Notes: generated by a model not told the origin, from the letters alone. A DNA stretch of 64,000 bases from Nitrosopumilus sp. (GCA_965223425.1 OZ245003.1:2336001-2400000); one strand, 5' to 3'. Positions 8,101-64,000 are shown, counted from the first letter of the stretch. Program-made: numbers and translations.

Positions 8101-10241
8101 TATAGATCCAGACCTTGATCTGAATTTGACAATGTCATGCTACCATCTCCTCCTGTTAGTCTGATCTCAGTAGCGCTCAAAGATCTAACATCATAATTGA
8201 TAAGTTGAAAAACACCATTAGTGTTTACCAAATCATCAAGGATACTAGAATCAATGTTAGTTGAGATTGTTACTGTAGGATTAGCAGTAAGTGTAATACC
8301 ACTAGTATCAATACTCAATATATTATCAAACGCTCCTACAGTAGAAGCGATCATAACATTACCGCTACCTCCAAGAACATTTAGCCTGTCATTTAGAACA
8401 TCAACTCTTTGTTGTGCATCCATTTCTGCAGTTTGTGCAACAGCTAAGGCATCAAGTGTCTTTTGCTGCGTAGCATTGTAGACTAACAAACTAAGTGCAG
8501 TGTTAATTTCCGCTAATCGTTCTTCAGCATTACGTTTAGCATTAATAGCTGCACCTACCTCACCTGGTTCACCAGAACGGTCTAGAGTCATTTGGGCCGC
8601 GTCTCTGTCAGCAATCTGATTTGTCATATTTGCAATCAAAGCAGCAGCTCCAACCTCTGCGTATACAGTATCTGCTGCTGTCTTGTTGCCATTAACAAAG
8701 CCTTGTGCCAGAGTTAATGCGGCATTAGCATCATTCAAATCACTTTGGAGTTCGGTAGTATCAGTAGTGCCTTGTATCATTACTTGTGTTGTACCTTCAA
8801 GTGTTTGTGGATTTCCAATTGAAATACTTGGAATTGATTCAAATGCACTGGATGCAACACTAAAGTCGTCATCAAGTAGGGAGTTTTTGTTCTCATCAGG
8901 ATCAAGTATGTTGACAGTCAGTGATTCGCCTGAACCCCAGTCTGCGTCAATACTTGATAGATCCATAGTTACGCTACCTGCTAAGAATGAGACTAGTCTG
9001 TTGATTGTTGTATCGTTATAGTCTATTTCAAAGTCAAGATCACGCAAGTCTGTCTCACTAGTCGTTGTCAGTGAAGACACATCACCATTGTCAGTATTTG
9101 AAAAGATACCAGAGTTTGGTTCTGTTTCTTGTACTGTGACAAGAGGTGAAGTTACAAGATCCGTTGAATACGGTGAAAGTTCTCTACGGTCTTGATAACC
9201 GTTATCCTCAACCATCAAGATTTCTTCCTCGATGTCGTCAGAGTTTGGACTTAGATCAATGAAAAGAAAACCATTATCACCGTAGAATGCGTTATTCAAT
9301 TCTGTTTTGTAATCTTTCAATTGGTTGGTGTTATCGATTGTAATAGATCCACTTTCATCAAACAAGTAATAGTATGCTGCATTGCTACCATCAGTATTAA
9401 ATGTCCAAGTATCTTCATCAGTTGGATCAATGTTTAATTGATTATCACTGATTGTTAAGTGGACATCAGCACCGTGTGGATAGCTTTCTCTATCCAAAGA
9501 GAAATCTGCAAAGTCGTCCATAGATTCGTCATAAATCACAGTGATTTTCTGGTTACTTCCACCTGAATGATAGATGACATCAATTGTAGCGTCATCTGTA
9601 AAGTCATTCCATGTTTGGATAAATGGCCAAACATTTATGTTGTTTAAACCATTGTTACCAAAAGTAGTACCAGGAAAGTCAAGATTACCATTACGATTAC
9701 TATTTGCTTCTTTTGCATTTCTTAGTACGTTTAATGTTTCCACAGCATTAGGTGTTTCACAGTTACTTCCAGACACATAGACTATAGTACCAACATCAAA
9801 ATCTTCGCCAATAAGACGATTAGCTTGTACATCGGTACATTCTGTACCAAAATCTAAACCAATATTGTTAAGAGTAGTAGCATTGTTACCATTATCAACT
9901 GCTTTTACATTGTCAGTATGCGCAACATATGCATACCAATAACCATCAGTTGCCTGAACCATTCTAAGATCATTGCCGTCAAAAGTTACATCAGGTTCTG
10001 CCTCATCTTCATCAGTTTCTGATAAATTGGGATCCCTTACAATAACTTCAACGACCATTGGTCCGCCAAATGTGGTAGTTGATACATACAGATTTGCTGT
10101 CTCTTTAGATTCAGCGCTAACATCAGGCATGATACCAGGGATTGCAAACGTCATTCCGCCTGCAACCATGATAGTCATTAATGTTAAACTAGTTATTTTT
10201 CGTTGTATTTCGTTATTCATGTTATTGAGTTTTTTCTTCAT
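5124..10241 (-). CDS. slaA: Thaumarchaeal S-layer protein (SlaA/NmSLP-like)
   Basis: N-terminus MNNEIQRKITSLTLMTIM (likely start 10220), repeated acidic Ig-like ETG.DTGIF motifs, and C-terminus AFVWESVDNPTALSPP typical of Nitrosopumilus S-layer proteins. Confidence 0.9.
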   Translation of the reverse strand: MKKKLNNMNNEIQRKITSLTLMTIMVAGGMTFAIPGIMPDVSAESKETANLYVSTTTFGGPMVVEVIVRDPNLSETDEDEAEPDVTFDGNDLRMVQATDGYWYAYVAHTDNVKAVDNGNNATTLNNIGLDFGTECTDVQANRLIGEDFDVGTIVYVSGSNCETPNAVETLNVLRNAKEANSNRNGNLDFPGTTFGNNGLNNINVWPFIQTWNDFTDDATIDVIYHSGGSNQKITVIYDESMDDFADFSLDRESYPHGADVHLTISDNQLNIDPTDEDTWTFNTDGSNAAYYYLFDESGSITIDNTNQLKDYKTELNNAFYGDNGFLFIDLSPNSDDIEEEILMVEDNGYQDRRELSPYSTDLVTSPLVTVQETEPNSGIFSNTDNGDVSSLTTTSETDLRDLDFEIDYNDTTINRLVSFLAGSVTMDLSSIDADWGSGESLTVNILDPDENKNSLLDDDFSVASSAFESIPSISIGNPQTLEGTTQVMIQGTTDTTELQSDLNDANAALTLAQGFVNGNKTAADTVYAEVGAAALIANMTNQIADRDAAQMTLDRSGEPGEVGAAINAKRNAEERLAEINTALSLLVYNATQQKTLDALAVAQTAEMDAQQRVDVLNDRLNVLGGSGNVMIASTVGAFDNILSIDTSGITLTANPTVTISTNIDSSILDDLVNTNGVFQLINYDVRSLSATEIRLTGGDGSMTLSNSDQGLDLYTADSSTANFTGNLTIEIDTGLSGGGETFNILLDIFTFGQSNDGTRYNDAIYRFEAEETDVNTGVYSGTVEYIMLNQINIYEHDTYDGLATISDELDIIVHEDLTDEDGVEMIYLDRDGQGVKTQTSDKINAPTYSGVVSFDSDNYKVADTVTITLEDRDLNTDSDVKDIYTVTGDTIGSDRSLLLDVTFDDKPWERCSPIHNEGFGSAIGSLQETGVDTGVFTTNFQVPEEYCTPDDIAVTVTGLDIEVNYQDFRDSSGEEIEVGDSAGIRANTGSISLDRTVYPVPFGMPGNFTDDENDGSFFAVHDTAGEGEHLDNGQLMIHIRVNDPDYDVSGSGQDKIAESDIHGPVKVMVTRGGDTVLLGTAGSDSDAIQQYVEDELTRITIGEAIQKPDPENPNKKITKEFGPIVEIEPTAGIFEIDIPIAYTDGPESPTCPESNTKAVSHIEGSNSQHCILQGDILTVEYADPTDASGSPNTVTDSATFDLRNGVLQSDKSVYLIGSDMILTLIEPDFDLDNDGAETYSLDLIEWDSDAATMTMGSIGGGDDKHHLAFDPEPSALRETGDSTGIFQVVIEIPDAIANEDLDRGEEIGLEYTDWGPSGANYVGDEDEDINLTVYTSNFGATIELDQKVYTWTDKVYITIVAPDHNFDSDLVDEIGESENDPIKVSTRGFDLDNYKLVETGTDTGIFTGEVILTGFAHDADGDSTEDTNPRTTGSGPTGGFLESDDDDGLTVSFEFSDGETVIGSSLIRWNIGEVQWLEASYPASGTGVIRVIDPDMNLDPEAVDNFHVNVFSDSDAGGIDLTVTETNEATGIFEGTVFFTITDESSGHRLRVAEGDTVTAEYEDNTLPKPYTTGDELDITATSLIGTVVPPLERVLTTNLRTVDAFGNSLDSVSVDQQVQISADLASGQDKKQQFAYLVQVQDGNGVTVSLAWITGTLDPGQSFSPALSWIPANSGSYTTTAFVWESVDNPTALSPPVSTTVNVS

Positions 10242-10424
10242 AGTTAGTATTTAAAACTAATGGACAAATTGTCCACAATTATAGAATTTTTTGATTAAAT
10301 TTCCAAATTTAATGAAATTATTTGAAGTTTGCGTTATAAAAATTACACTTTATTCCATAAACTGCAGTATGATCGTTAAATTTTTTATATTTTGCCTGTA
10401 ATTCATGAAATTTTTACAGCCTGT

Positions 10425-11759
10425 TTATGCCTTGGTCTCATTGCCCAGCAGGCCTTTGTACAGTGCTACGGCATCAGCCTCGTCTTTTGGCCCCACAACA
10501 ACTGCAGAGCCCCTTTTCATAAAACTGACAGAGAGATCATTTGTCCTCATGGACAATCCCAAGTCGCCTTGGTTCTCCACTGTAAAGCCTTTTTGTTTTG
10601 CAGCTGCAGTGATGCCCTCAACATCAAGATCAAGTGTCTGGGTCGGGGTAATGGAAAAGGTTCTCCTTCCGCGGTTTCGTCCGCACAGCTCCTCTAGAAT
10701 CAGCTCCTCTTTTTGTACGGCCTCTTCAGGTTTTCCTGTTCCGCAGACTGGACACTCGTCGGCTCTGAACGTTTTAGTACTGTTAAAGTCCAGACTTTCC
10801 AAATCAATATGCAAAATTCTTTCAGACAAGCTTGGTTTTTTTCCAGTGACAATCTTTACAGCTTCTGCAACTTCGATTCCTCCAACCAGTGAAAGTATCG
10901 GCGGATGAACCCCCTCAATGCTGCATGTCGGCATTGTGTCCCCGTCCAGTTCCGGAAACATGCAATAGTAGCACGCAGACTCTTTTGGCAGAACCGTGAA
11001 GGCCTGTCCTGAGACTCCGACTGCAGCTCCTGTTACAAAAGGAATTCCAAGATCCACACAAGCTTTGTTTAGCGCATACCTGGCATCAACGCTGTCAAGT
11101 GCGTCAATGACGACATCGCATCCGCTGACTACTTCTGGTGCAGTGTAGTCATTTACAGATACGGCCAACGCCTCGATTTTACAGTCAGGATTTAGTTTCT
11201 GTAATTTTTTTGCAGCCACTTCCACCTTTACCTGGCCGACATCATCCTCATCAAACATGGTTTGCCTGTGCAGGTTGGACAGCTCTATTACATCCCTGTC
11301 TACAATGCGTAATGTGCCGACACCCATTGCAGCTAACCGCGATGTGATCGGATTGCCAAGACCGCCGGTTCCCACAACACAGACCTTGGAGTTTTTCAGC
11401 TTTAGCTGTCCCTGATAGCCAATCTCTTCAAGCATCACTTGCCTGGAGAACCTGTCCAGCTCCTTTGGAGACAGCTCCCCAGAGCCGCCGGCCACTGCAG
11501 GCAGGATGTAGATCTCATCACCGTCCTTTAGGGCAGTCTGCATGCCGTCAGAAAACTTGGCATTTTTTCCGTTGATGTAAATGTTAATCAGCGAGCGCGG
11601 CTTGCCGTTGCCCTCCAGAACCCTGCGCCTGAAATCATCGCCCATTACCTCAGACATTATCACAAATGCGTCATGAAGGGAGTCAGCTGAGATGTCCGTT
11701 CTCTTTTCGCCGCCTCCCTGGTTTAGTACCGAGGGAACGGTAAATACAATGTCTGCCAT
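10425..11759 (-). CDS. ThiS/MoaD (ubiquitin-like) fused to ThiF/MoeB adenylyltransferase
   Basis: N-terminal beta-grasp domain ending ILPAVAGG, followed by an E1 domain with GTGGLG, SNLHRQ and CxxC motifs. Confidence 0.9.
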   Translation of the reverse strand: MADIVFTVPSVLNQGGGEKRTDISADSLHDAFVIMSEVMGDDFRRRVLEGNGKPRSLINIYINGKNAKFSDGMQTALKDGDEIYILPAVAGGSGELSPKELDRFSRQVMLEEIGYQGQLKLKNSKVCVVGTGGLGNPITSRLAAMGVGTLRIVDRDVIELSNLHRQTMFDEDDVGQVKVEVAAKKLQKLNPDCKIEALAVSVNDYTAPEVVSGCDVVIDALDSVDARYALNKACVDLGIPFVTGAAVGVSGQAFTVLPKESACYYCMFPELDGDTMPTCSIEGVHPPILSLVGGIEVAEAVKIVTGKKPSLSERILHIDLESLDFNSTKTFRADECPVCGTGKPEEAVQKEELILEELCGRNRGRRTFSITPTQTLDLDVEGITAAAKQKGFTVENQGDLGLSMRTNDLSVSFMKRGSAVVVGPKDEADAVALYKGLLGNETKA

Positions 11760-11760
11760 A

Positions 11761-12975
11761 CTATTGGACTACCGCCGATATTTCACTTACGTCTGCCTTC
11801 ATCACGTCGGGTTTGGGCAGAACCTCCATGACTGATTCGGTGGCCTTCAAACCGTTTCCGGTGACGTAGCACACTACAGAGTCATCCTTGTCAATCTTGC
11901 CTTGCTTGACCATCTTTTGCAGCACTGCAACAGAGACACCGCCGGCAGGTTCTGTAAATATTCCCTCAGTTCTTGCAAGCAGCAAAATTGCATCAAGGAT
12001 CTCCTTGTTGCTTGACTCTTCGGCAAACCCGTTGTATTGCTGCAAACGTTTTAGAACGTACCTCCCGTCACCGGGATCGCCAATGGCCAGACTCTTTGCC
12101 ACAGTGTCAGGATGCTCTACAGGGACTACGTCTTTGCTGTTTTTCTTAAACGCATCAACGATTGGCGCGCATCCGCGGGGCTGCGCTGCGATCATGCGCA
12201 TGCCAGAAACATCGCCAAGCAGTGAAACATGCTGCAGCTCCTCAAAGCCCTTGCAGACTGCATTAAGCATTGCCCCGCTCCCTACCGGAACTATCAGCTG
12301 ATCAGGCACTTGCCAGCCAAGCTGTTCTGCAACCTCGTAGGCCAGGGTTTTTGAGCCTTCCACATAATGGGAGCGCATGTTAATGTTTACAATTCCAATT
12401 CCCTTGCTGTCGCCGATTTGTGCGGCGACTCTGTTTGCATCATCATATGTCCCATCCACTGCAATGTAGTTTGCGCCATATGACAGCGCTTGTGTGATCT
12501 TTGCCATCTCAATGTTGCTTGGCGCAAACACATGACATGGAAATCCCCCCTTGGCAGCATGTGCTGCAGTGGCAGATGCCAGGTTTCCAGTAGACGCGCA
12601 TCCCACTGCAGACAGCCCAAACTCTTTTGCTTTTGATATTGCAACCCCCGCAGGCCTGTCCTTGAATGAAAAGGTCGGGTTTACAGAGTCATTTTTGATG
12701 TAGAGGTTTTTTAGTCCCAGTTTCTCCCCCAGATTATCGGCCCTGATCAGCGGAGTCATTCCAGCACCGATGCTAACAATGTTTGACTTGCTCTCTATTG
12801 GGAGCAGCTCAAAATATCGCCAATAGTTGTGCCCACGGCCAGAAAACGTATCCTTTGAGACCGGCGGAAAGTCATACCCCACGTCAAGCGGGCCAAAACA
12901 GTCATCGCAGACATACTTGAAGGCAGAATCATACTGCCTCTTGCATTCTCTGCACTGTAGGTATGTTCTAGCCAA
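11761..12975 (-). CDS. thrC: Threonine synthase
   Basis: NPTFSFKDR PLP lysine motif, ASTGN, N-terminal Zn ribbon. Confidence 0.9.
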   Translation of the reverse strand: MARTYLQCRECKRQYDSAFKYVCDDCFGPLDVGYDFPPVSKDTFSGRGHNYWRYFELLPIESKSNIVSIGAGMTPLIRADNLGEKLGLKNLYIKNDSVNPTFSFKDRPAGVAISKAKEFGLSAVGCASTGNLASATAAHAAKGGFPCHVFAPSNIEMAKITQALSYGANYIAVDGTYDDANRVAAQIGDSKGIGIVNINMRSHYVEGSKTLAYEVAEQLGWQVPDQLIVPVGSGAMLNAVCKGFEELQHVSLLGDVSGMRMIAAQPRGCAPIVDAFKKNSKDVVPVEHPDTVAKSLAIGDPGDGRYVLKRLQQYNGFAEESSNKEILDAILLLARTEGIFTEPAGGVSVAVLQKMVKQGKIDKDDSVVCYVTGNGLKATESVMEVLPKPDVMKADVSEISAVVQ

Positions 12976-55900: not shown

Positions 55901-57661
55901 CTAACTTGGAATGACTCCGCCTGATTTTTTGATTGCATTTTCGAAGGCCTCCCAAATTTTTGATGTCTTTACTTTTTGTAAACCATCTTGTTGTTTTAAC
56001 AAATCCTTCATGAAAGAATATGCATTTTCTTTCAGTTTTTCTGAACATTTCCAACCTAATTTTTTATACTCATCTTCTAGATCCACGGGTAGTTTAGTTA
56101 CATTATCCATATTTTCATGGTATTCGTTATCCACCATCGCAATAAATGGGATATCAAAGGCATTATGAAGTTCAATATTAGGATAGACATTAGCCACACC
56201 CCACATCTGCATCACAAAAATATTATATTTTTTAAACAAGCCGCCAAAATGATCTGAAATTGCCTCTAAGGCAAATTTATCACCTGCTCCTTCTCCAATT
56301 AAAGTACAATTACTGAAAAATACTTCAGGATTAAATAAATGAGATTTTAATGTGATTTGGAAGTCAGTTGGAAGAGATTTTACATTACTTTCTCCATTGA
56401 CTCTATTAAGATAGATTAATGAGGAAGAATCTGGCTTTGCAAGTAATTCATAAGATGCAAATTTTGGCGAATGTGAGATGATAATTATTTGATTGTTTTT
56501 TGATACAGCAAGCTCAGATAGTTTCTGAGATAAATGATTGATTTTGATTGGATGAAAATGAATTTCTGGCTCGTCAATCACTAAAATTTGATTTGGTTTA
56601 GCCAGAATAGTGTATAAGATATGAATTAATGCATAATGTCCTGAAGCTGATTCTTGCAAATTAAATTCTTTGTCTTTTTCACTTAATCTAATTTGTAATG
56701 AACTGTTTCCATGTTCATCAGAAACCTCATCTACACGTACCGCTATGCCATTAAAAATATTTGAAAATTCTTTCTTCAGTGTTTCGTAAGTTGGCTCATG
56801 TTGACTTTTCATATTGAATAATTGCTTTGTTAATTTATCATATGTTGGATGAATTTCTTCAATAAACGTTAGATTGTTATCAATAATTTTATGTAATAAC
56901 TGATCTAATTGTACTCTAACATTTGTATTCTTTCTTATTTGCATATATTCTAGAATGTCAGATGCAGTTTGAGTTGGATTTTGATTGCTATACATGATTT
57001 CTAATTTAACTTGTGTCCACCATTTAGTATCACTAGTCATCAAAACAGATGAAGGAGGAGAGCCATTTGTTAAAGCATCTAATAATGTACCTTGTGTACC
57101 AATACTATCATCTTCACGCATTGTGTATGATTTTGCAATTCTTTCTGGGATGGAATTCATTTTTAAGGATTGTATGTTAGTGAGTAACTCATCAATAGTG
57201 CCTGAAGAATTACTAGCGGAAATATAATCAAAAACAACTTGACGTCCATCTTTCTCAACAATTGTGAGACCATTCTCAAAATAATACATTAAGAAATTCG
57301 GATGGGCTGTATCACTTATTGTGTTATTCCAATTTACTATAACATTAAGATTTTTTAGAGCATTAGGAAAAGTATCTTTATCTATTTTAGAACCAAACAT
57401 TGTTTGTAGAACTAATTTTGCTTCGTTATCTGTGAATTGTAATTGTAATAAGATTCGAGAGTTGCCAGTTTGATCAAATTTTTTATTTCTATCTAATGGG
57501 AGTAAATTTAAGTTGCTATTTTTACATATGAATTGTAATATTCTTATCAAATTAGTTTTTCCAGAGTTATTTGCACCCACAACCACATTGTATTTATTAA
57601 AATAAAAATCAGAATTTTTGAATGACAAAATATTTTGAATGTTTACTCGTTTTAGATGCAT
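55901..57661 (-). CDS. OLD-family ATP-dependent nuclease (ABC ATPase + TOPRIM)
   Basis: GANNSGKT Walker A, SASG signature, IDEPEIHFHP, SHS, then GEGAGD and MVDNE TOPRIM-like motifs; likely start MHLKRV at 57661. Confidence 0.85.
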   Translation of the reverse strand: MHLKRVNIQNILSFKNSDFYFNKYNVVVGANNSGKTNLIRILQFICKNSNLNLLPLDRNKKFDQTGNSRILLQLQFTDNEAKLVLQTMFGSKIDKDTFPNALKNLNVIVNWNNTISDTAHPNFLMYYFENGLTIVEKDGRQVVFDYISASNSSGTIDELLTNIQSLKMNSIPERIAKSYTMREDDSIGTQGTLLDALTNGSPPSSVLMTSDTKWWTQVKLEIMYSNQNPTQTASDILEYMQIRKNTNVRVQLDQLLHKIIDNNLTFIEEIHPTYDKLTKQLFNMKSQHEPTYETLKKEFSNIFNGIAVRVDEVSDEHGNSSLQIRLSEKDKEFNLQESASGHYALIHILYTILAKPNQILVIDEPEIHFHPIKINHLSQKLSELAVSKNNQIIIISHSPKFASYELLAKPDSSSLIYLNRVNGESNVKSLPTDFQITLKSHLFNPEVFFSNCTLIGEGAGDKFALEAISDHFGGLFKKYNIFVMQMWGVANVYPNIELHNAFDIPFIAMVDNEYHENMDNVTKLPVDLEDEYKKLGWKCSEKLKENAYSFMKDLLKQQDGLQKVKTSKIWEAFENAIKKSGGVIPS

Positions 57662-57858
57662 CCTATGATTGTAATAATTCATAATATAAGATCTTGGATC
57701 CGTACAACATGGAACAGTACGAAAGGATGATAGAGCAGACAATCAAGGCTATGTCTGGTTACATTTTGGATTAGCGTCCAAGAGCACTTTGTTTGAGCAT
57801 AGCCAACAGACTAACTCACAGTATGTGGCGGCATATGCCCTATTCTTTTTTCTAAAAT

Positions 57859-58302
57859 TTAGATCATCTTGATTTTTTTCAAAGCCTCGGTTAAACTTAC
57901 TAACATTTCTTCCATTCTACTGCGTGAGAAGGTCAGGCAAGTAGCACGCATTTGTATGTTGGAGGGAATTTCAACCATCTCTTCTGCAATAATTACTACG
58001 GGCTTGTTAGTTGCCTGACCAATTTCATCGATCACGTTTTGGCTTGGATAAAAAATCTCTTTTTCATTTTTAGATGACTTGATGTCTTTTGTAAGTATGG
58101 CTAGCAATGCATTTGATTCGGTAATCAGATCACTTACTTGAGTACTGGGAGATAAATCCGCCCTTCCTGTTTCTTTAGCAGAAAGAACGGTAAATCCCAA
58201 GGCCTTAAGCAATCTGCTTACTAGATCATAGAGACTATTATTTTTCTCCTGCATGGCAAAACTGATGAATATTGTAATGCCTTCTAAAGAGAAAGGCGGC
58301 AT
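57859..58302 (-). CDS. TIR-like / nucleotide-binding domain protein
   Basis: IFISFA, ESNALLAILT and SQNVIDEIGQA (catalytic-Glu helix) fit the TIR/NDT flavodoxin fold. Confidence 0.65.
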   Translation of the reverse strand: MPPFSLEGITIFISFAMQEKNNSLYDLVSRLLKALGFTVLSAKETGRADLSPSTQVSDLITESNALLAILTKDIKSSKNEKEIFYPSQNVIDEIGQATNKPVVIIAEEMVEIPSNIQMRATCLTFSRSRMEEMLVSLTEALKKIKMI

Positions 58303-58385
58303 TTCCTAGTTAAAGTGAATAAACAATTGAATCACTTGAAGAATCGATAAAACTTGTGCATTTGGAATTCATTACAATATCAAAT

Positions 58386-58840
58386 ATATTCAAACTATGT
58401 CGCCTAACTCCCTCTCATTTTTGGAGTGCAAAAATGAAACAGAGTTTACGATACTAAAAAAACTGTACAGATATCCGTTGCTGGGGGTTGTTGCCAAATT
58501 CCCGCCTACATAGTCCTTATCCAATATTCGACCCTTATTCGCGCCTGTAGAAAAGCCACATATCACACAAATCCAACAGCAAGATACAATTCGGCAACAA
58601 CCCCCCGTTGCTGTGCTCTAAAGAATGGGATTTTCATGCTGCACGTGAATTTGATATGACCAATAATTCCAACCTATTTCATACCACCAAGGTTGGATAT
58701 CCTCTTTATGAAGGGAAGATGATCTATCAATTTGAACATAATTATCTAGAACCGAGATATTGGATTGACGAAGAAGAGGGCCGCGCAGTTTTAGAATCAA
58801 AAGAACTCAGTAGAATGAAAAAAATAAACAAGGATCATAA
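58386..58840 (+). repeat. Left inverted repeat (~325 bp plus 130-bp insertion)
   Basis: Reverse complement of 61032-61356, with about 3 mismatches apart from the MITE and its TSD. Confidence 0.95.
58484..58604. mobile_element. 121-bp MITE (IS5-type ends)
   Basis: TIRs GGGGTTGTTGCCAAATT / AATTCGGCAACAACCCC; 9-bp TSD CCGTTGCTG at 58475-58483 and 58605-58613; the empty site is visible in the repeat copy near 61260. Confidence 0.95.
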
Positions 58841-59417
58841 GACATCACCAAAATTAGATCTGTCATATTACAGATTAGCTTGGAGGGATATTTCAAATGC
58901 TATTGATAGACGTACATTAATTTGTACTATTATGCCTCCACATGTATTTTTAGGTAACACATTATCATACATTCGCCCCATAGAGTTTGATGGTAAAAAA
59001 TATGTTTGTTCATTATCTTATAAAGAAATAATTTTTTTATGTGGTCTCTTCAACTCATTTCCAATTGATTTTATTTTGCGTCATCGAATAAATTTACACG
59101 TAAGTATTTTTTATTTAATGGAATTATCTATTCCAAAATTTGATGAAAATAATTTATTACATCAAAAAATTCTAGAAAATACAGCTAAATTAATTTGCAC
59201 TACTGATGAATTTGAAGAATTATCAACACAAATTGGAATCAGTGGGGGTGTACATGATGCAAAAAAACGTTTGAAACTCATATCTCAGATTAATGCATAC
59301 GTGTCTAAAATATATCATCTAAATCAAGAGGATTTGAAATTTATTTTAGAGTATTTCAGAGTAGAAGATGAAAATCTAAAAAAATCAACTTTAGAAGAAT
59401 TTGTGAAATTGGAATGA
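58608..59417 (+). other. Silent alternative C-terminal target-recognition cassette of the Type IIG-like MTase
   Basis: The first ~75 aa are essentially identical to the MTase; the remainder is a diverged homolog of its C-terminus; no catalytic domains. Confidence 0.88.
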
Positions 59418-59445
59418 GTCAGATATTAGTTAGTAATATGAATCA

Positions 59446-60366
59446 TCATATTTTAAGATCATTTATTCCTTTTATGAATTCTGCAAATAATTCATCAAGC
59501 GTAGGTACGAAATATACACCGTCAAGTCCATTCTTATGGCCCATGAGTTTTTCTACAACATTATAATTTATTGAATTATTTAGTTTTAGTAACGTATTGA
59601 ATCTTTTTCTAAATCCATGATGCATTTGAATGTCATATCTGTTTCCTTCTAAATTCCGGATTATCGAAGATTTCTTTATTAAATTAAACATTACATTTTT
59701 TACAGAATTGGAATTCATCTGATTTTTTATGTCATATGAGATAAAAAGTGGAGATTCCTTCGTCATGAGTTCTCCTCTCCTTACTCTGTATCTGTGATAA
59801 TCATTTAAGAGTTTTACAGCTTGTGGTGTAAGAAATGACCAGTATTCATCCATATGATCTGCGTATAGTTTTATTGCCATGCACCCATACTTCATTTTTT
59901 TAGTATGTTTTAATTGTAAACTGTGATCAAATATTCCCACTCTTGCGCCAGTGGATGCAAGAAAATGTACTAATGCTTTCGTTCTCACACTTCTAACACA
60001 TTTGAGCATATTTTGTATATCTCTAGTTGTCCATGGTTTATGTCCCGTTCTTTTTTGTTTTTGAGGAAATAATTTATGAATAATATCCCAGTTGATATTC
60101 TTTCTGTTCATTATACAAAAATGTCTTAATCCTGTAAATCTCACAGGAATTGAATTTGGGTTTATTGTGTGTTTTAATTCAATCAAATAATCTTCTAACA
60201 TTTGCTGTAATTTTACTGAAGAAATAGCTGTAAGTTGATGGACAAATTCAATATTTATGAATTGCATGAATCGTTTTAAGTTTGTAATGTAAAGATCTTT
60301 TGTGTATTCAGATTTTATAGATTCCTCAAATAGAATCATCGATCTTTGTAAAGATGTTATAGCCAA
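59446..60366 (-). CDS. Tyrosine recombinase/integrase
   Basis: Catalytic residues TGARVG (R), HGFRKRF (HxxR), KLMGH (H) and DGVYF (Y). Confidence 0.92.
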   Translation of the reverse strand: MAITSLQRSMILFEESIKSEYTKDLYITNLKRFMQFINIEFVHQLTAISSVKLQQMLEDYLIELKHTINPNSIPVRFTGLRHFCIMNRKNINWDIIHKLFPQKQKRTGHKPWTTRDIQNMLKCVRSVRTKALVHFLASTGARVGIFDHSLQLKHTKKMKYGCMAIKLYADHMDEYWSFLTPQAVKLLNDYHRYRVRRGELMTKESPLFISYDIKNQMNSNSVKNVMFNLIKKSSIIRNLEGNRYDIQMHHGFRKRFNTLLKLNNSINYNVVEKLMGHKNGLDGVYFVPTLDELFAEFIKGINDLKI

Positions 60367-60442
60367 TTTTACTTCATGTTAAATTATTTTCTAACTATAA
60401 GAAACAATTAGTTTGAGTCAAAAAACATAGAACCAATTTTTC

Positions 60443-63400
60443 TTAGACTATCTTTTTATTACTCTGACTAAATTCGTTTAATGATAGTTTTTTTAACTGC
60501 TTATTAGCAATAGGAAAATTTTTTAAAATTAATTTCAAATCATCATGATCTAAATTATATATTTTAGCTACACATGCGTTAATTTGAGATTCTAAAGCAA
60601 AACGTTTAGCACTTTGAGTTTCATAATCAGAAATACCTAATGAATTGCGTAATTTGGAGAATTCATCCGTAGTGCAGATTAATTTAACTGTATTTTCAAA
60701 AACTCTATTATGTAATTTATTTGATTTATCAAATTTTGGAATAGGTAATTCCATTAAATAAAAAATATTAAGATTAGTGGCTACCTTATGACGTAAAATA
60801 AAATCAATTACAAAGGAATTAAAAATACCACATAAAAAGATAGTTTCATTTAGAGAAATTGAACGGACATGTTTTTTGCCGTTAAAGATTAAAGGAGAGA
60901 GATAATTTAACGAGTTCCCTAAAAATAAATTATACGGTAAAATTGTACTAATTAGAGTTCTTTCATTAGTTGAATTAGTTATGGATCGCCATACCAGTCT
61001 ATATTCATCACAATCAATTCTAGAGTCAGCATTATGATCTTTATTTATTTTTTTCATTCTACTGAGTTCTTTTGATTCTAAAACTGCGCGGCCCTCTTCT
61101 TCGTCAATCCAATATCTCGGTTCTAGATAATTATGTTCAAATTGATAGATCATCTTCCCTTCATAAAGAGGATATCCAACCTTGGTGGTATGAAATAGGT
61201 TGGAATTATTGGTCATATCAAATTCACGTGCAGCATGAAAATCCCATTCTTTAGAGCCCAGCAACGGATATCTGTACAGTTTTTTTAGTATCGTAAACTC
61301 TGTTTCATTTTTGCACTCCAAAAATGAGAGGGAGTTAGGCGACATAGTTTGAATATGTTTTAGATCATAATCATATGCAATTTTTTTATGATTTTGAAGT
61401 ATTGATGCATCTTCAAGATAAAAGCTGGCAAGAAATTTTTTTGTTGTATTACCTTTAGTGAATATAATTAAACAGAATTTGAATTGTCGATGAATTCCTT
61501 CAAAAATCCCTTTTTTATTGATAAATGAGTATAATGAGTTAATTTTAGTTTTCTCAATAAGCATTTCTCTTAATCCTTTGGAACCTAAATCTGAATAAAT
61601 TCCAGATGGAACTACAAATCCGCATAATCCATTTTTACCTAATTGAGCATATGATCTCTCTGTGAATAATTTATACAAATTTAGATCACTGGATTGTTTT
61701 TTGCCGTTAACTATTGATGACTGATAATAATATGAACCACTGTTAAAATATTTCATTTGTTTTTCATAATATCTGTTATACAAATCATAATCGACTTTGA
61801 TTTTTTTATCTTTCAAGCACTCTTTAACAAATTTATTTTTTTTATTTTTAGTTAACATACTAAACTTTTGTTCAGTATTTTTTAAATTATAAAAAGGAGA
61901 AAAGAATTCATCAACGTCTGGTTTTACTATCTGCCATGGTGGATTTCCAACAACCCCGTCAAACCCAGAATTCTTCCTCCGCTTCCCGTCATCATCATAA
62001 AAGATATCTGGAAACTCCAAGTCCCAATGAAAAAACGAATGTTCCTGTGACACCTTCTTGACCTGCTGCCATCTCTCGTCTGAATAAAAGTCAAGGCCGT
62101 TCTCGCCGATTTTGGCCACATAATCGCCTATCGGAGGCACATCGACACCAAACGATTTTGCCAGCTTTGCATCAAGCATGAATTTCAGATCATAGTATGT
62201 GGTTCCCTTTTGCTGCATATTCTCATATTTTACAACCTTTGTTTTTACCGCAGATGGTGTATCGTCTTCTAGCTGTTCAAGCATGATAAAGTCCTTTACA
62301 ATCTTCTTAAAACGACCCCTGCCCTTTGTGGATTCTATGAGGGTAGTCTGTTTTTCCAATATGTCGTCAATGCTAGCTCCAATCAACGAGTTTCCTGTTT
62401 TTAGATGGGCGTTCAAAAAAGATAGCGGCCTTTCAGAAGACAATGTTTCTAGCCACAAGGACACCTGTGCTAGATCCACTGCAAGTGGGTTGAGATCCAC
62501 ACCATAGATACACCGCCTGACAACATCCCTTTTTCTCTCTACAAACGCATGTTCGGAAATTTCATCTTCGTACTCTATATGGCAGATCCTTCTTGCAATA
62601 TAGTTTGTAGCTCCAACCAGAAAGTGACCTGATCCCATGGCAGGATCCAGTATGTTCAGTGCCAGTATGTCATCTACTTGCTGGCTTTTGTCCGGTGTTT
62701 TTTTAACAATGTCATCAATTAACGGTCCTATAGTGTTTTTCACGATATAATCAACAATATACTGCGGAGTGTAATAACTTCCTGTGGATTTTCTCTCCTT
62801 TGGGTTTGGGAGATCTGAAACCTTACCATCTTTTATTGTGAGGTGAAACTCCAGCAGATGCTCATAGATTGCGCCGAGATGGCGGGTCTCAAGTGCGGCA
62901 TAGTCCAAAAAGAAATAGTTGTCCTTTTTGTCACGCGTTCTGGTCAGCAGGCCTATTGCCTCAAGAAGATTCTTGTTTGGAATCTTCCATTTTTCAAGTT
63001 CGTGGTGTATTTTTCTGTCAAACAGTCTGCCATAATATGAACGCATGAAAAATTCCTCATGCTTGTAATCAAGATCCTCACTTCCAACTTCTATCAACCG
63101 AAACAACTTTCTCAGCCGTTCCTGAACCTGATACTGGCCAATCTTTTTCTTTTTCTTTTGGTCGTTTTTTAAAATCCATTCCTGCTTTATCCACTTTAAG
63201 CTAAAATTGTCATGATAGAACTTTTCATCAGGAAATATCGACCTGTCTTCCGCATAAAGGACAAACATGATCCTGTACAGCAAGATGAATGTGGGTTCTC
63301 TGATCTCTTCTAACGTATGCTCATCCAAAGTCAGTTTATTTGACTCGTCCAAAATTATTCCCTCTGATAATATCTTTAATGCCTCAAAGACATTTACCGT

Positions 63401-63916
63401 AAGCTCATTGTGAATTTGTACTGCAAACGAGTCAAAGGCATCAGATATTTTGGATACGATTGACGATGCGGTCATTTTCGGTTCAACCTTGATTTTTTCG
63501 AGGAATTCCACAAAGGTTTTTGGAACGCCAGCATCTGGTCTGATATCTATTGGAACGTGTCTTGTTTCTGAAAAAGACTTTGAGAATTCCTTCGAAAGGC
63601 TTGAAAACACCCACTTGAATCCGCCCGGATTGTGCGAGCACACCATGCAAAATCCGTTATTCTGCTTGATTATCTTGGCAGCTATCCCCTTCCAGTTTCT
63701 CAGGGAATCTGTGTTTGTCTGGACATAGTAAATTCGGTAATCGTTTTTGCTTGCAATTATTCTGGCCTCTGAGACGGTCTGTTTTTGTTCCTTGCTCCAA
63801 CTATCCTTGTTGACTGGCTTGTTTTCAAAATCAAAGTTCAATTCTGAGAATAGACTGCGTAACGAATCCAGATCTTTTAGCCTGTATGCCAAGTTTTCCA
63901 GCTTTTTATCTACCAA
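60443..63916 (-). CDS. Type IIG/Eco57I-like N6-adenine DNA methyltransferase with fused TRD
   Basis: LGAIYE, GSYYTP, ILDPAMGSGHFL (motif I), GVDLN, GNPPW (motif IV) and a TaqI-C-like C-terminal TRD. Confidence 0.92.
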   Translation of the reverse strand: MVDKKLENLAYRLKDLDSLRSLFSELNFDFENKPVNKDSWSKEQKQTVSEARIIASKNDYRIYYVQTNTDSLRNWKGIAAKIIKQNNGFCMVCSHNPGGFKWVFSSLSKEFSKSFSETRHVPIDIRPDAGVPKTFVEFLEKIKVEPKMTASSIVSKISDAFDSFAVQIHNELTVNVFEALKILSEGIILDESNKLTLDEHTLEEIREPTFILLYRIMFVLYAEDRSIFPDEKFYHDNFSLKWIKQEWILKNDQKKKKKIGQYQVQERLRKLFRLIEVGSEDLDYKHEEFFMRSYYGRLFDRKIHHELEKWKIPNKNLLEAIGLLTRTRDKKDNYFFLDYAALETRHLGAIYEHLLEFHLTIKDGKVSDLPNPKERKSTGSYYTPQYIVDYIVKNTIGPLIDDIVKKTPDKSQQVDDILALNILDPAMGSGHFLVGATNYIARRICHIEYEDEISEHAFVERKRDVVRRCIYGVDLNPLAVDLAQVSLWLETLSSERPLSFLNAHLKTGNSLIGASIDDILEKQTTLIESTKGRGRFKKIVKDFIMLEQLEDDTPSAVKTKVVKYENMQQKGTTYYDLKFMLDAKLAKSFGVDVPPIGDYVAKIGENGLDFYSDERWQQVKKVSQEHSFFHWDLEFPDIFYDDDGKRRKNSGFDGVVGNPPWQIVKPDVDEFFSPFYNLKNTEQKFSMLTKNKKNKFVKECLKDKKIKVDYDLYNRYYEKQMKYFNSGSYYYQSSIVNGKKQSSDLNLYKLFTERSYAQLGKNGLCGFVVPSGIYSDLGSKGLREMLIEKTKINSLYSFINKKGIFEGIHRQFKFCLIIFTKGNTTKKFLASFYLEDASILQNHKKIAYDYDLKHIQTMSPNSLSFLECKNETEFTILKKLYRYPLLGSKEWDFHAAREFDMTNNSNLFHTTKVGYPLYEGKMIYQFEHNYLEPRYWIDEEEGRAVLESKELSRMKKINKDHNADSRIDCDEYRLVWRSITNSTNERTLISTILPYNLFLGNSLNYLSPLIFNGKKHVRSISLNETIFLCGIFNSFVIDFILRHKVATNLNIFYLMELPIPKFDKSNKLHNRVFENTVKLICTTDEFSKLRNSLGISDYETQSAKRFALESQINACVAKIYNLDHDDLKLILKNFPIANKQLKKLSLNEFSQSNKKIV
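61032..61356 (-). repeat. Right inverted repeat, inside the MTase gene
   Basis: Encodes IQTMSPNSL..KKINKDH; matches 58386-58840. Confidence 0.95.
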
Positions 63917-63918
63917 AT

Positions 63919-64000
63919 TTAATCGCCCACATATTTGCTGTACAGAATCCGAGGGGACTTGCTTTCCTCCTCGCTTTGTTTTATCTGGTTTTGCAGATTG
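63919..64000 (-). CDS. 3' end of an upstream gene coupled to the MTase (partial)
   Basis: Open frame ..NLQNQIKQSEEESKSPRILYSKYVGD* stops 2 bp before the MTase start. Confidence 0.5.
   Translation of the reverse strand, partial: NLQNQIKQSEEESKSPRILYSKYVGD

Follow-up and report, generated by a model that had tools for sequence, protein, structure and literature searches.

A probable multi-state specificity shufflon acting on a two-gene restriction-modification system of an ammonia-oxidising archaeon

The 64,000-nucleotide stretch of Nitrosopumilus sp. DNA analysed here (the window; GCA_965223425.1 OZ245003.1:2336001-2400000, i.e. C1:2336001-2400000 of a two-contig genome of 2.64 Mb) contains near its end, at positions 58386-63916, a methyltransferase (MTase) gene, part of which is repeated in inverted orientation on the far side of a tyrosine recombinase gene. 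We propose, with a probability of roughly three in four, that this locus is a working multi-state specificity shufflon of a restriction-modification (RM) system, in which programmed inversion acts on a defence system made up of a phospholipase D (PLD)-SNF2 protein and an N6-adenine (N6A) MTase with a target recognition domain (TRD). As the genome encodes an archaeal AmoA (3.9e-118), the host is an ammonia-oxidising archaeon. In a first tier of the proposed switch, recombination between the arms of an inverted repeat, IR1, would invert ~2.2 kb holding the recombinase (rec1) and thereby swap the last ~195 residues of the TRD in frame, cassette Va for cassette Vb. In a second tier, nested around the first, recombination at the 21-bp core of another inverted repeat, IR2, would invert 8.9 kb, so that the MTase block would then read into a third 3' half supplying motif IV and a TaqI_C-type TRD. 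The core of this reading is well supported by the anatomy of the locus, by the clade to which rec1 belongs and by a second assembly with recombined repeats; beyond it, we infer that rec1 is the catalyst of the first tier, that the exchange of Va and Vb still takes place, and that each of the Va, Vb and cassette-3 alleles has its own motif for methylation and restriction.

The MTase, the expressed gene of the putative switch, is a 1157-aa open reading frame (ORF) on the minus strand (60443-63916). A repeat search paired 58605-58840 with 61032-61267 (236 nt, 99%) and 58362-58485 with 61257-61380 (124 nt, 93%) as inverted arms, with diverged homology of the two copies extending to 59356/60516. 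In a base-by-base alignment the right arm of IR1 (61044-61356, minus strand), which encodes MTase residues ~854-958, is matched over all its 313 nt with zero mismatches by two plus-strand pieces forming the left arm, namely an outer part of 99 nt at 58386-58484 (o99) and an inner part of 214 nt at 58615-58828 (i214), both perfect. The edges of the repeat are sharp, identity dropping at once to ~55-78% on either side. Beyond the right arm the gene runs into cassette Va (60443-61043, minus strand; MTase residues 962-1157), which is currently expressed, and beyond the left arm lies the silent alternative, cassette Vb (58829-59417, plus strand), an open frame of 192 codons and a stop. Vb is the end of a 269-aa plus-strand ORF (58608-59417), and the silent copy is partial and promoterless, with no MTase body. 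The initial annotation of this stretch had described an MTase segment repeated in inverted orientation at 58386-58840, a plus-strand copy continuing as a different C-terminus up to its own stop at 59417, and an inversion that would fuse this alternative C-terminus to the MTase in frame, all of which is borne out: simulating the IR1 inversion gives an open gene of 1153 aa, identical to the reference through residue 961 and thereafter carrying the alternative tail. The locus thus presents what is expected of a shufflon, namely inverted repeats leading to a promoterless partial copy, a recombinase situated between the arms (rec1; 59446-60366, minus strand, 306 aa) and alternative alleles that are intact in silico.

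The left copy of the repeat measures 455 bp against 325 bp for the right one, and holds a 130-bp insertion consisting of a 121-bp element (58485-58605) and a 9-bp target duplication, CCGTTGCTG, seen at 58476-58484 and 58606-58614. Because its terminal inverted repeats and the 9-bp duplication match those of a 1.07-kb IS5-family element, the insertion can be identified as a miniature inverted-repeat transposable element (MITE). This IS5-family element (L175:184-1258; C1:61783-62857) encodes a 332-aa transposase, has the terminal inverted repeat GGGGTTGTTGCCAAATTC and has its paired ends represented five times in the genome; by its ends it is the likely parent of the MITE. The idea that the MITE itself is a multi-copy element was discarded, as the genome has one full copy and one partial copy of 47 nt. 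Situated in one IR1 arm, the MITE would truncate the MTase whenever that arm joins the expressed gene. A perfect 8-7-8 dyad, TCATTTTT-GGAGTGC-AAAAATGA, is present in o99 (58415-58437) and in the right arm (61305-61327), and is a candidate for the recombination core of rec1; should rec1 act there, inversion starting from the present state would bring the MITE into the MTase gene, which would thereby be turned OFF.

The two cassettes share 103 of 196 residues, and the differences quoted in the initial annotation (WRSITNSTNERT/WRDISNAIDRRT and RHKVATNLN/RHRINLHVS) are present in their alignment. Nonsynonymous (dN) and synonymous (dS) divergence between Va and Vb stand at 0.38 and 1.21, respectively (dN/dS ~0.3). 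In the repeat part dS is 0.025, and this value beside the 1.21 of the flanks points to ongoing homogenisation of the IR1 arms, while the saturated silent divergence next to a perfect repeat argues for selection on Vb as well. Vb keeps 20 of the 21 family-invariant and all 23 of the nearly invariant residues, matches the same end of the same PADLOC profile as Va, and by these comparisons looks functional. Among full-length homologues, P0001, P0018 and P0020-22 have a TRD nearer to Vb than to Va; a Va-type TRD is found in P0002, which is 78% identical to the MTase overall.

The second tier emerges from sequence beyond the window, for which we use window-equivalent coordinates, i.e. positions in the same genome above 64,000, numbered on from the window start. 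The left arm of IR2 (61938-62128, minus strand, 191 nt) lies within the MTase gene and its inverted counterpart at window-equivalent 71015-71205 (L174:15516-15706); they are 82% identical over 191 nt and include an identical core of 21 nt (window 62105-62125), in which a comparison with IR1 found no shared core (best 13 of 21). The 8.9 kb between the arms encompass the first 604 codons of the MTase gene together with the helicase gene, a second tyrosine recombinase (L174:11941-12900) and an insertion sequence (IS). The far arm overlaps cassette 3, a 436-aa ORF (window-equivalent 70970-72280) with Eco57I and TaqI_C domains. Simulated IR2 inversion yields an ORF of 1017 aa with the first 604 residues unchanged, and this simulation was run before the protein P0037, described next, had been seen.

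Exact-protein look-ups recovered a second assembly, from a near-identical strain (ENA contigs of 293,632 nt and 369,336 nt), the arrangement of which was deduced from its called proteins, every matched stretch being 100% identical. Records of the 1157-aa MTase are confined to a single contig, that of the window genome; the helicase, the recombinase and the TIR protein are on record on two each. On the 369,336-nt contig P0037, with the 1017 aa given by the simulation, joins the first 604 residues of the MTase to the C-terminal 421 residues of the cassette-3 ORF, the two parts overlapping in GDYVAKIG. Reciprocally, P0030 (314 aa, 293,632-nt contig) consists of the first 23 residues of the cassette-3 ORF, MTase residues 597-887 and the tail VVAKFPPT before its stop. 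In both proteins the crossover falls within the same eight residues, which are encoded by the 21-nt IR2 core. It can hence be inferred that the 8.9-kb block is inverted in the second assembly, with both reciprocal IR2 junctions present, and the two-state switch of the initial annotation turns out to be too narrow a description, since a third cassette is reached in public data by a second, nested inversion, and OFF states may arise through the MITE. The same proteins also bear on IR1. The tail of P0030 corresponds to translation running into the MITE; P0057 (257 aa), which reproduces window 60443-61216 exactly, is recorded as a gene of its own only on the 293,632-nt contig; and P0040 (296 aa), from this contig as well, reads MSPNSL...RYPLLG and then Vb on an arm free of the MITE. 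The MITE would accordingly sit on the MTase-side IR1 arm in that strain, and Vb on the MITE-free arm. A change of arm by the MITE between the two assemblies requires one exchange in o99 and one in i214, which would mean either two inversions, one of them via a Vb-expressing state, or a single double exchange or conversion. As judged from the called proteins, this shows that IR1 arms recombine in near-identical genomes.

A tyrosine recombinase between the cassettes had been noted in the initial annotation as having all its catalytic residues, and this largely stands. The catalytic set R142, H250-G-F-R253, H277 and Y285 is present, with R142, R253, H277 and Y285 invariant across 18 relatives; for the catalytic lysine no confident assignment was possible, K166 not being conserved and K157 and K159 being candidates read from the sequence. 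Pfam recognises rec1 as Phage_integrase (29.9 bits, cut-off 27.1), with sub-threshold matches to XerA, XerC and XerD, and a profile of the rec1 clade matches the XerA structures 5hxy (3.3e-8) and 4a8e. Homologues occur at E<=1e-20 in 78 of 251 genomes of the order and at E<=1e-75 in 40 of 401 genomes of the family, counting the window genome and the unpublished G342. To place rec1 among these, 42 recombinase loci with 7-kb flanks were scored by HsdS/M/R queries, the identity of the queries being confirmed by Pfam. In a tree of 43 recombinases rec1 falls in a clade with 99/96 support; of the 27 further members of this clade, 19 lie no more than 7 kb from a Type I hsdS; ten of the 27 have inverted repeats between hsdS copies (e.g. 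189 nt at 99.5% in L205 and 208 nt at 92% in L192), and seven of these repeat pairs flank the recombinase. Three of the eight clade members that received no such label lie on truncated contigs. An hsdS is nearby in only two of the 14 more distant relatives. As related genomes are non-independent, this link of the clade to hsdS is to be read as an association and not as a statistic. The MTase family of the window is found in none of the recombinase loci, rec1 being the sole case tied to an MTase-TRD gene.

Candidate hsdS shufflons are dispersed across the family (L192:5624-9394; L205:5200-9371; L206:3616-9776; L211:5814-9839; L208; L209; L204; L198; L180; L179). They comprise inverted hsdS pairs with repeats of 40-622 nt, ~71-99.5% identical, and a recombinase 50-57% identical to rec1 between or beside them. 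The window genome itself encodes, on C1, a rec1 paralogue (54% identical) between an hsdS fragment and a full hsdS-hsdM-hsdR set; at this locus (L176:6272-6457 and 9170-10579) the two hsdS pieces share one strand, and a search for inverted repeats turned up none.

The genomic setting allows a wholly different account, under which nothing here is programmed: rec1 and the second recombinase would serve the mobile elements of a defence island as integrases, and horizontal transfer together with IS-mediated rearrangement would have left the partial MTase copies behind as debris. The region is indeed a mosaic. GC content is 27-32% in the 3' half of the MTase gene, rec1, the silent cassette and the neighbouring TIR and OLD genes, and 41-44% in the 5' half of the MTase gene and the helicase gene, with the seam falling inside the MTase gene at the IR2 arm (window 61900-62100; L174:6400-6600); in cassette 3 the GC content is low once more. 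Close by are IS copies, what looks like a truncated MTase half and the second recombinase, and related recombinases at 33-47% identity to rec1 mostly have no RM neighbours. Integrases and Type I RM genes are moreover described as common cargo of integrated thaumarchaeal elements in Krupovic 2019 (PMC6563490). However, integration yields direct and not inverted repeats, both partial copies are in frame, open and end at a homologous stop, and a strain whose proteins are otherwise identical has both reciprocal IR2 junctions at a single 21-nt core. Together with the tie of the close clade of rec1 to inverted hsdS copies, this makes such an origin of the locus very unlikely.

Public sequencing runs bear on the reality of the repeat. 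Five runs from three studies hold the locus, and four of these were examined, all as k=31-type contigs. In run X1 the contig of the repeat (61044-61257) is covered to a depth of 2324, while the 2275-nt contig lying between the arms (58799-61073) reaches 1171, and runs of a second study show identical contig boundaries and the 2275-nt unit. On account of this roughly twofold depth and of the boundaries shared by two studies, the repeat is present in two copies and is not a product of assembly, a doubt that the initial annotation had itself raised. Contigs also break at 62096-62125 in X2 and X4, and in X1 a loose end of nine letters after 62125 is the reverse complement of the cassette-3 flank. 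These breaks fit a branching of the assembly graph at the 21-nt core, as if both IR2 states were present, though only as a hint: the X1 loose end can also derive from the reference cassette-3 locus. Such contigs commonly end where a graph branches, and it is on this behaviour that the reading of the breaks depends. A 324-nt contig of X5 that runs from the MTase-side junction through the repeat into the start of Vb was not counted, being a k-mer path at a depth of 6. In runs of two studies, contigs match up to 61366 and 60916 and then continue with sequence absent from the window genome.

An assembly artefact, in the repeat or in the alternative arrangement, could be entertained on the grounds that short-read assemblers can mis-join perfect repeats of 99 and 214 nt and that the second assembly is known here from called proteins alone. 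Against this stand the double depth of the repeat contig, its identical boundaries in two studies and the mere two contigs of the window genome; furthermore, the identical stretch at the IR2 junctions is no longer than 21 nt, and the reciprocal products are both present, with flanks that are 100% identical. This renders an artefact scarcely credible as the explanation.

In a relative, a 25,304-nt ENA contig encodes P0024, a homologue 77% identical to the MTase whose variable part begins like Va but stops prematurely, so that the protein has 1034 aa. The contig also has P0031, a distinct ORF of 122 aa in which the IR1 region is repeated. These features point to a locus of the same design in the relative, possibly as a degenerate or alternative form of the shufflon. 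Six of 28 long cassette homologues (P0003, P0005, P0008, P0011, P0013 and P0019) are only 553-573 aa in length and have the Eco57I domain alone; they may represent split genes, or else silent cassettes of half a gene in the manner of cassette 3. Two viral loci, L267 and L293, also have inverted repeats close to a distant homologue of the MTase; in the latter a 264-nt inverted repeat of 83% identity (10599-10862, 12220-12483) pairs the 3' end of a 23%-identical MTase with the start of a 304-aa ORF on the opposite strand.

Several results weigh against a shufflon in current operation. The Va/Vb flip put forward in the initial annotation was not observed: the two-assembly comparison appears to show recombination of the IR1 arms and not the Va/Vb swap, protein look-ups did not find a flipped gene (the best long Vb-matching protein is 62% identical), the 90% cluster of the MTase consists of P0029, P0030 and P0031 only, and as the contigs of the runs break at the perfect 214-nt and 99-nt repeats, the orientation of IR1 cannot be read from them. 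A mis-join across the 99-nt part of the repeat in the second assembly may be a source of artefact. No close orthologue of the MTase was found in 60 relatives (best 31% identical); 171 cellular loci of the MTase family at 22-40% identity (11 from relatives, 80 from genomes and 80 from metagenomes) have no inverted copy of the MTase 3' region, and neither these nor 80 viral loci in the same range of identity have a rec1 homologue. Comparison of IR1 with the hsdS repeats of rec1 relatives revealed no common word beyond chance (4 shared 10-mers vs 3.95 in shuffled sequences). Finally, the change of arm by the MITE, with crossovers on both sides of it as homology-driven exchange would produce, is explained no less well by general homologous recombination or gene conversion than by a single site-specific core.

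Part of this evidence, namely the MITE-split left arm, the double crossover, the lack of a flipped gene and of a core shared with the repeats of rec1 relatives, would be accounted for if IR1 were the relic of a switch or a crippled one, with arms that exchange only by occasional homologous recombination or conversion, a rec1 that takes no part and a MITE that makes many flips non-productive. Yet both parts of the repeat are still 100% identical, rec1 is intact with its invariant catalytic residues and belongs to a clade of RM shufflons, Vb keeps the conserved residues of the family, and a perfect 8-7-8 dyad lies within the repeat. In view of these features we regard decay of IR1 as unlikely and favour the working shufflon.

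With regard to the protein that is switched, Pfam detects Eco57I (5.1e-22), N6_Mtase (2.7e-13) and MmeI_Mtase (29.2 bits, cut-off 27) in the MTase, and its best PADLOC model is REase_MTase_IIG (2.1e-89), with the alignment limited to profile positions 462-1239 of 1250. Sequence searches matched no solved structure for the MTase, nor for rec1 alone. An AlphaFold model built from a 16-sequence alignment has a mean predicted local distance difference test score (pLDDT) of 62, the C-terminal 400 residues being mostly at 70-90 and the N-terminal half poor. Its nearest folds are CamA, BrxX/PglX, M.BseCI, LlaBIII/LlaGI, BpuSI and DrdV, which we take to be gamma-class adenine MTases with a C-terminal recognition domain. 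By the Pfam and fold matches the protein thus has the gamma-class N6A MTase domain followed by a TRD that is typical of Type IIG enzymes. Pfam and PADLOC find no nuclease family in residues 1-370, and residues 1-100 have no invariant acidic/lysine motif across 16 homologues.

Directly upstream, with its stop codon 2 nt from the MTase start, lies the PLD-SNF2 nuclease/helicase gene (minus strand; 3' end at 63919-64000 in the window, running to window-equivalent 67257), which encodes 1112 aa with PLDc_2, SNF2-rel_dom, Helicase_C and ResIII domains according to Pfam; PADLOC gives 'HKD+Snf2' (7.3e-71) as well as DrmD-like matches. A homologue of this helicase occurs in 41 of 160 loci of the wider MTase family, and in 12 of them the match begins in the PLD region. 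Given that this gene adjoins an MTase in which no nuclease was found, the system is, as far as domain content can tell, an RM-like two-gene module of a nuclease/helicase and an MTase-TRD protein. The single-chain Type IIG-like enzyme proposed in the initial annotation is ruled out by the same two facts, the nuclease being the PLD domain of the upstream gene. Class 1 DISARM was likewise rejected, since the DrmMI- and DrmD-like matches are accompanied by no DUF1998 or DrmA-type gene among the flanking ORFs scanned, as was BREX, the PglX models scoring 48-50 bits against cut-offs of 400-500 with no PglZ or BrxC among the neighbours scanned. Within the helicase gene we also observed a perfect 37-bp direct repeat (window-equivalent 65614-65650 and 65689-65725, 75 bp from start to start).

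As for the wider neighbourhood, an OLD/GajA-like ATPase-Toprim gene (613 aa) stands beside a small TIR-domain gene (147 aa) at window 55901-58302, adjoining the silent cassette. The TIR domain is of the CAP12/Pycsar type (8.5e-7), and no known partner of the gene pair was seen at 55901-58302. On the other side, two inverted copies of an IS with a DDE transposase, 93-95% identical (window-equivalent 69394-70767 and 75694-77168), bracket cassette 3 and three unannotated ORFs in the manner of a composite transposon.

Programmed inversion of RM specificity genes has been studied well in bacteria, where the PLD/SNF2 and MTase architecture is among the known cases, and this corrects the initial annotation in so far as it knew of no description. 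Milman 2023 (NAR, PMC9881135) used long reads to confirm inversions in bacterial Type II RM genes of the Cj0031-like kind that have a PLD and SNF2-helicase coding sequence beside them (loci CP083813.1 and CP044495.1 in its Table 3), and likewise in DISARM DrmMI and BREX PglX; by its own statement this survey scanned bacteria only, and no archaea. A literature search, with supplementary locus lists outside its reach, found no report of an archaeal MTase-TRD shufflon or of an hsdS shufflon in an ammonia oxidiser. Chanin et al. (PMC10028968) analysed 42 archaeal long-read sets (Euryarchaeota and Crenarchaeota), none of them from the phylum of the host, and call archaeal invertons 'only minimally investigated'. 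The text of Krupovic 2019 (PMC6563490) contains no mention of inversion, invertase or 'phase varia', and a 2025 review (PMC11868660) anticipates surveys of archaeal phase variation.

The locus provides a concrete archaeal case in a cultivable ammonia oxidiser; two assemblies give evidence that it really rearranges, and the clade of its recombinase serves as a marker of further RM switches in related genomes. Several methylomes and restriction specificities would coexist within clonal populations of a key nitrifier if its alleles recognise different motifs, which would bear on virus-host dynamics, gene flow and the reading of methylome data; assemblies of such loci are snapshots of one state. 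It is tempting to go further and to suppose, tentatively and at somewhat less than even odds, that ammonia-oxidising archaea run phase-variable epigenomes, with two nested recombinase-driven inversions and a movable MITE giving a clonal population here three or more ON specificities, and an OFF state besides, of a single helicase-coupled RM system, and with a clade of XerA-like invertases switching the specificity of RM systems, both Type I and MTase-TRD, across the family. Should this be true, virus defence, and possibly gene regulation, would be heterogeneous by design in globally abundant nitrifiers.

Among known systems, the bacterial Cj0031-like loci come closest in architecture. They likewise have an Eco57I-type MTase-TRD gene beside a PLD-SNF2 gene, inversion via repeats to partial copies and a recombinase nearby; this likeness rests on architecture and not on homology of the MTase to Cj0031 itself. 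Unlike them, the present locus resides in an AmoA-encoding archaeon and has a XerA-like recombinase, two nested tiers and a MITE in one arm. BREX type 1 PglX and Class 1 DISARM DrmMI share with it a large gamma-class N6A MTase whose integral TRD is altered by inversion, and this is accompanied by the presence of BrxX/PglX among the nearest folds of the MTase and by a match to the DrmMI profile; inversion of BREX type 1 PglX was reportedly described by Goldfarb in 2015. The two systems differ from the locus in their gene complement, as no PglZ, BrxC, DrmA, DrmB or DrmC was found among the neighbours examined and PglX scores are far below the cut-off.

The Type ISP enzymes LlaGI and LlaBIII (5ffj, 4xqk), which the MTase model matches in fold with E values of 5e-10 to 1e-9, unite the same kinds of part as the two genes do here, namely a nuclease, a motor of the helicase type, an MTase and, at the C-terminus, a TRD. 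Type ISP enzymes are, however, single polypeptides with an Mrr-type nuclease, whereas here the nuclease is of the PLD type, the parts are split over two genes and the specificity would be switchable. Within the archaeal domain, the invertible tail-fibre region of the haloarchaeal viruses phiCh1 and phiH1, which is acted upon by Int1, offers a precedent for recombinase-driven, gene-altering inversion, though in a viral tail-fibre gene and not in a chromosomal RM gene. Type I hsdS shufflons, such as SpnIII/ivr of Streptococcus pneumoniae and hsd of Mycoplasma pulmonis, were the systems with which the initial annotation had compared the layout. They too have inverted repeats between an expressed gene and silent partial copies and a tyrosine recombinase in or beside the invertible segment, and the closest relatives of rec1 sit in such hsdS loci of related archaea. 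Type I hsdS shufflons are surveyed in PMC7672463 and PMC7394358. In these systems it is a separate S subunit that is rebuilt by inversion, whereas in the archaeal locus the TRD is part of the MTase chain itself and the second tier would additionally swap the catalytic motif IV.

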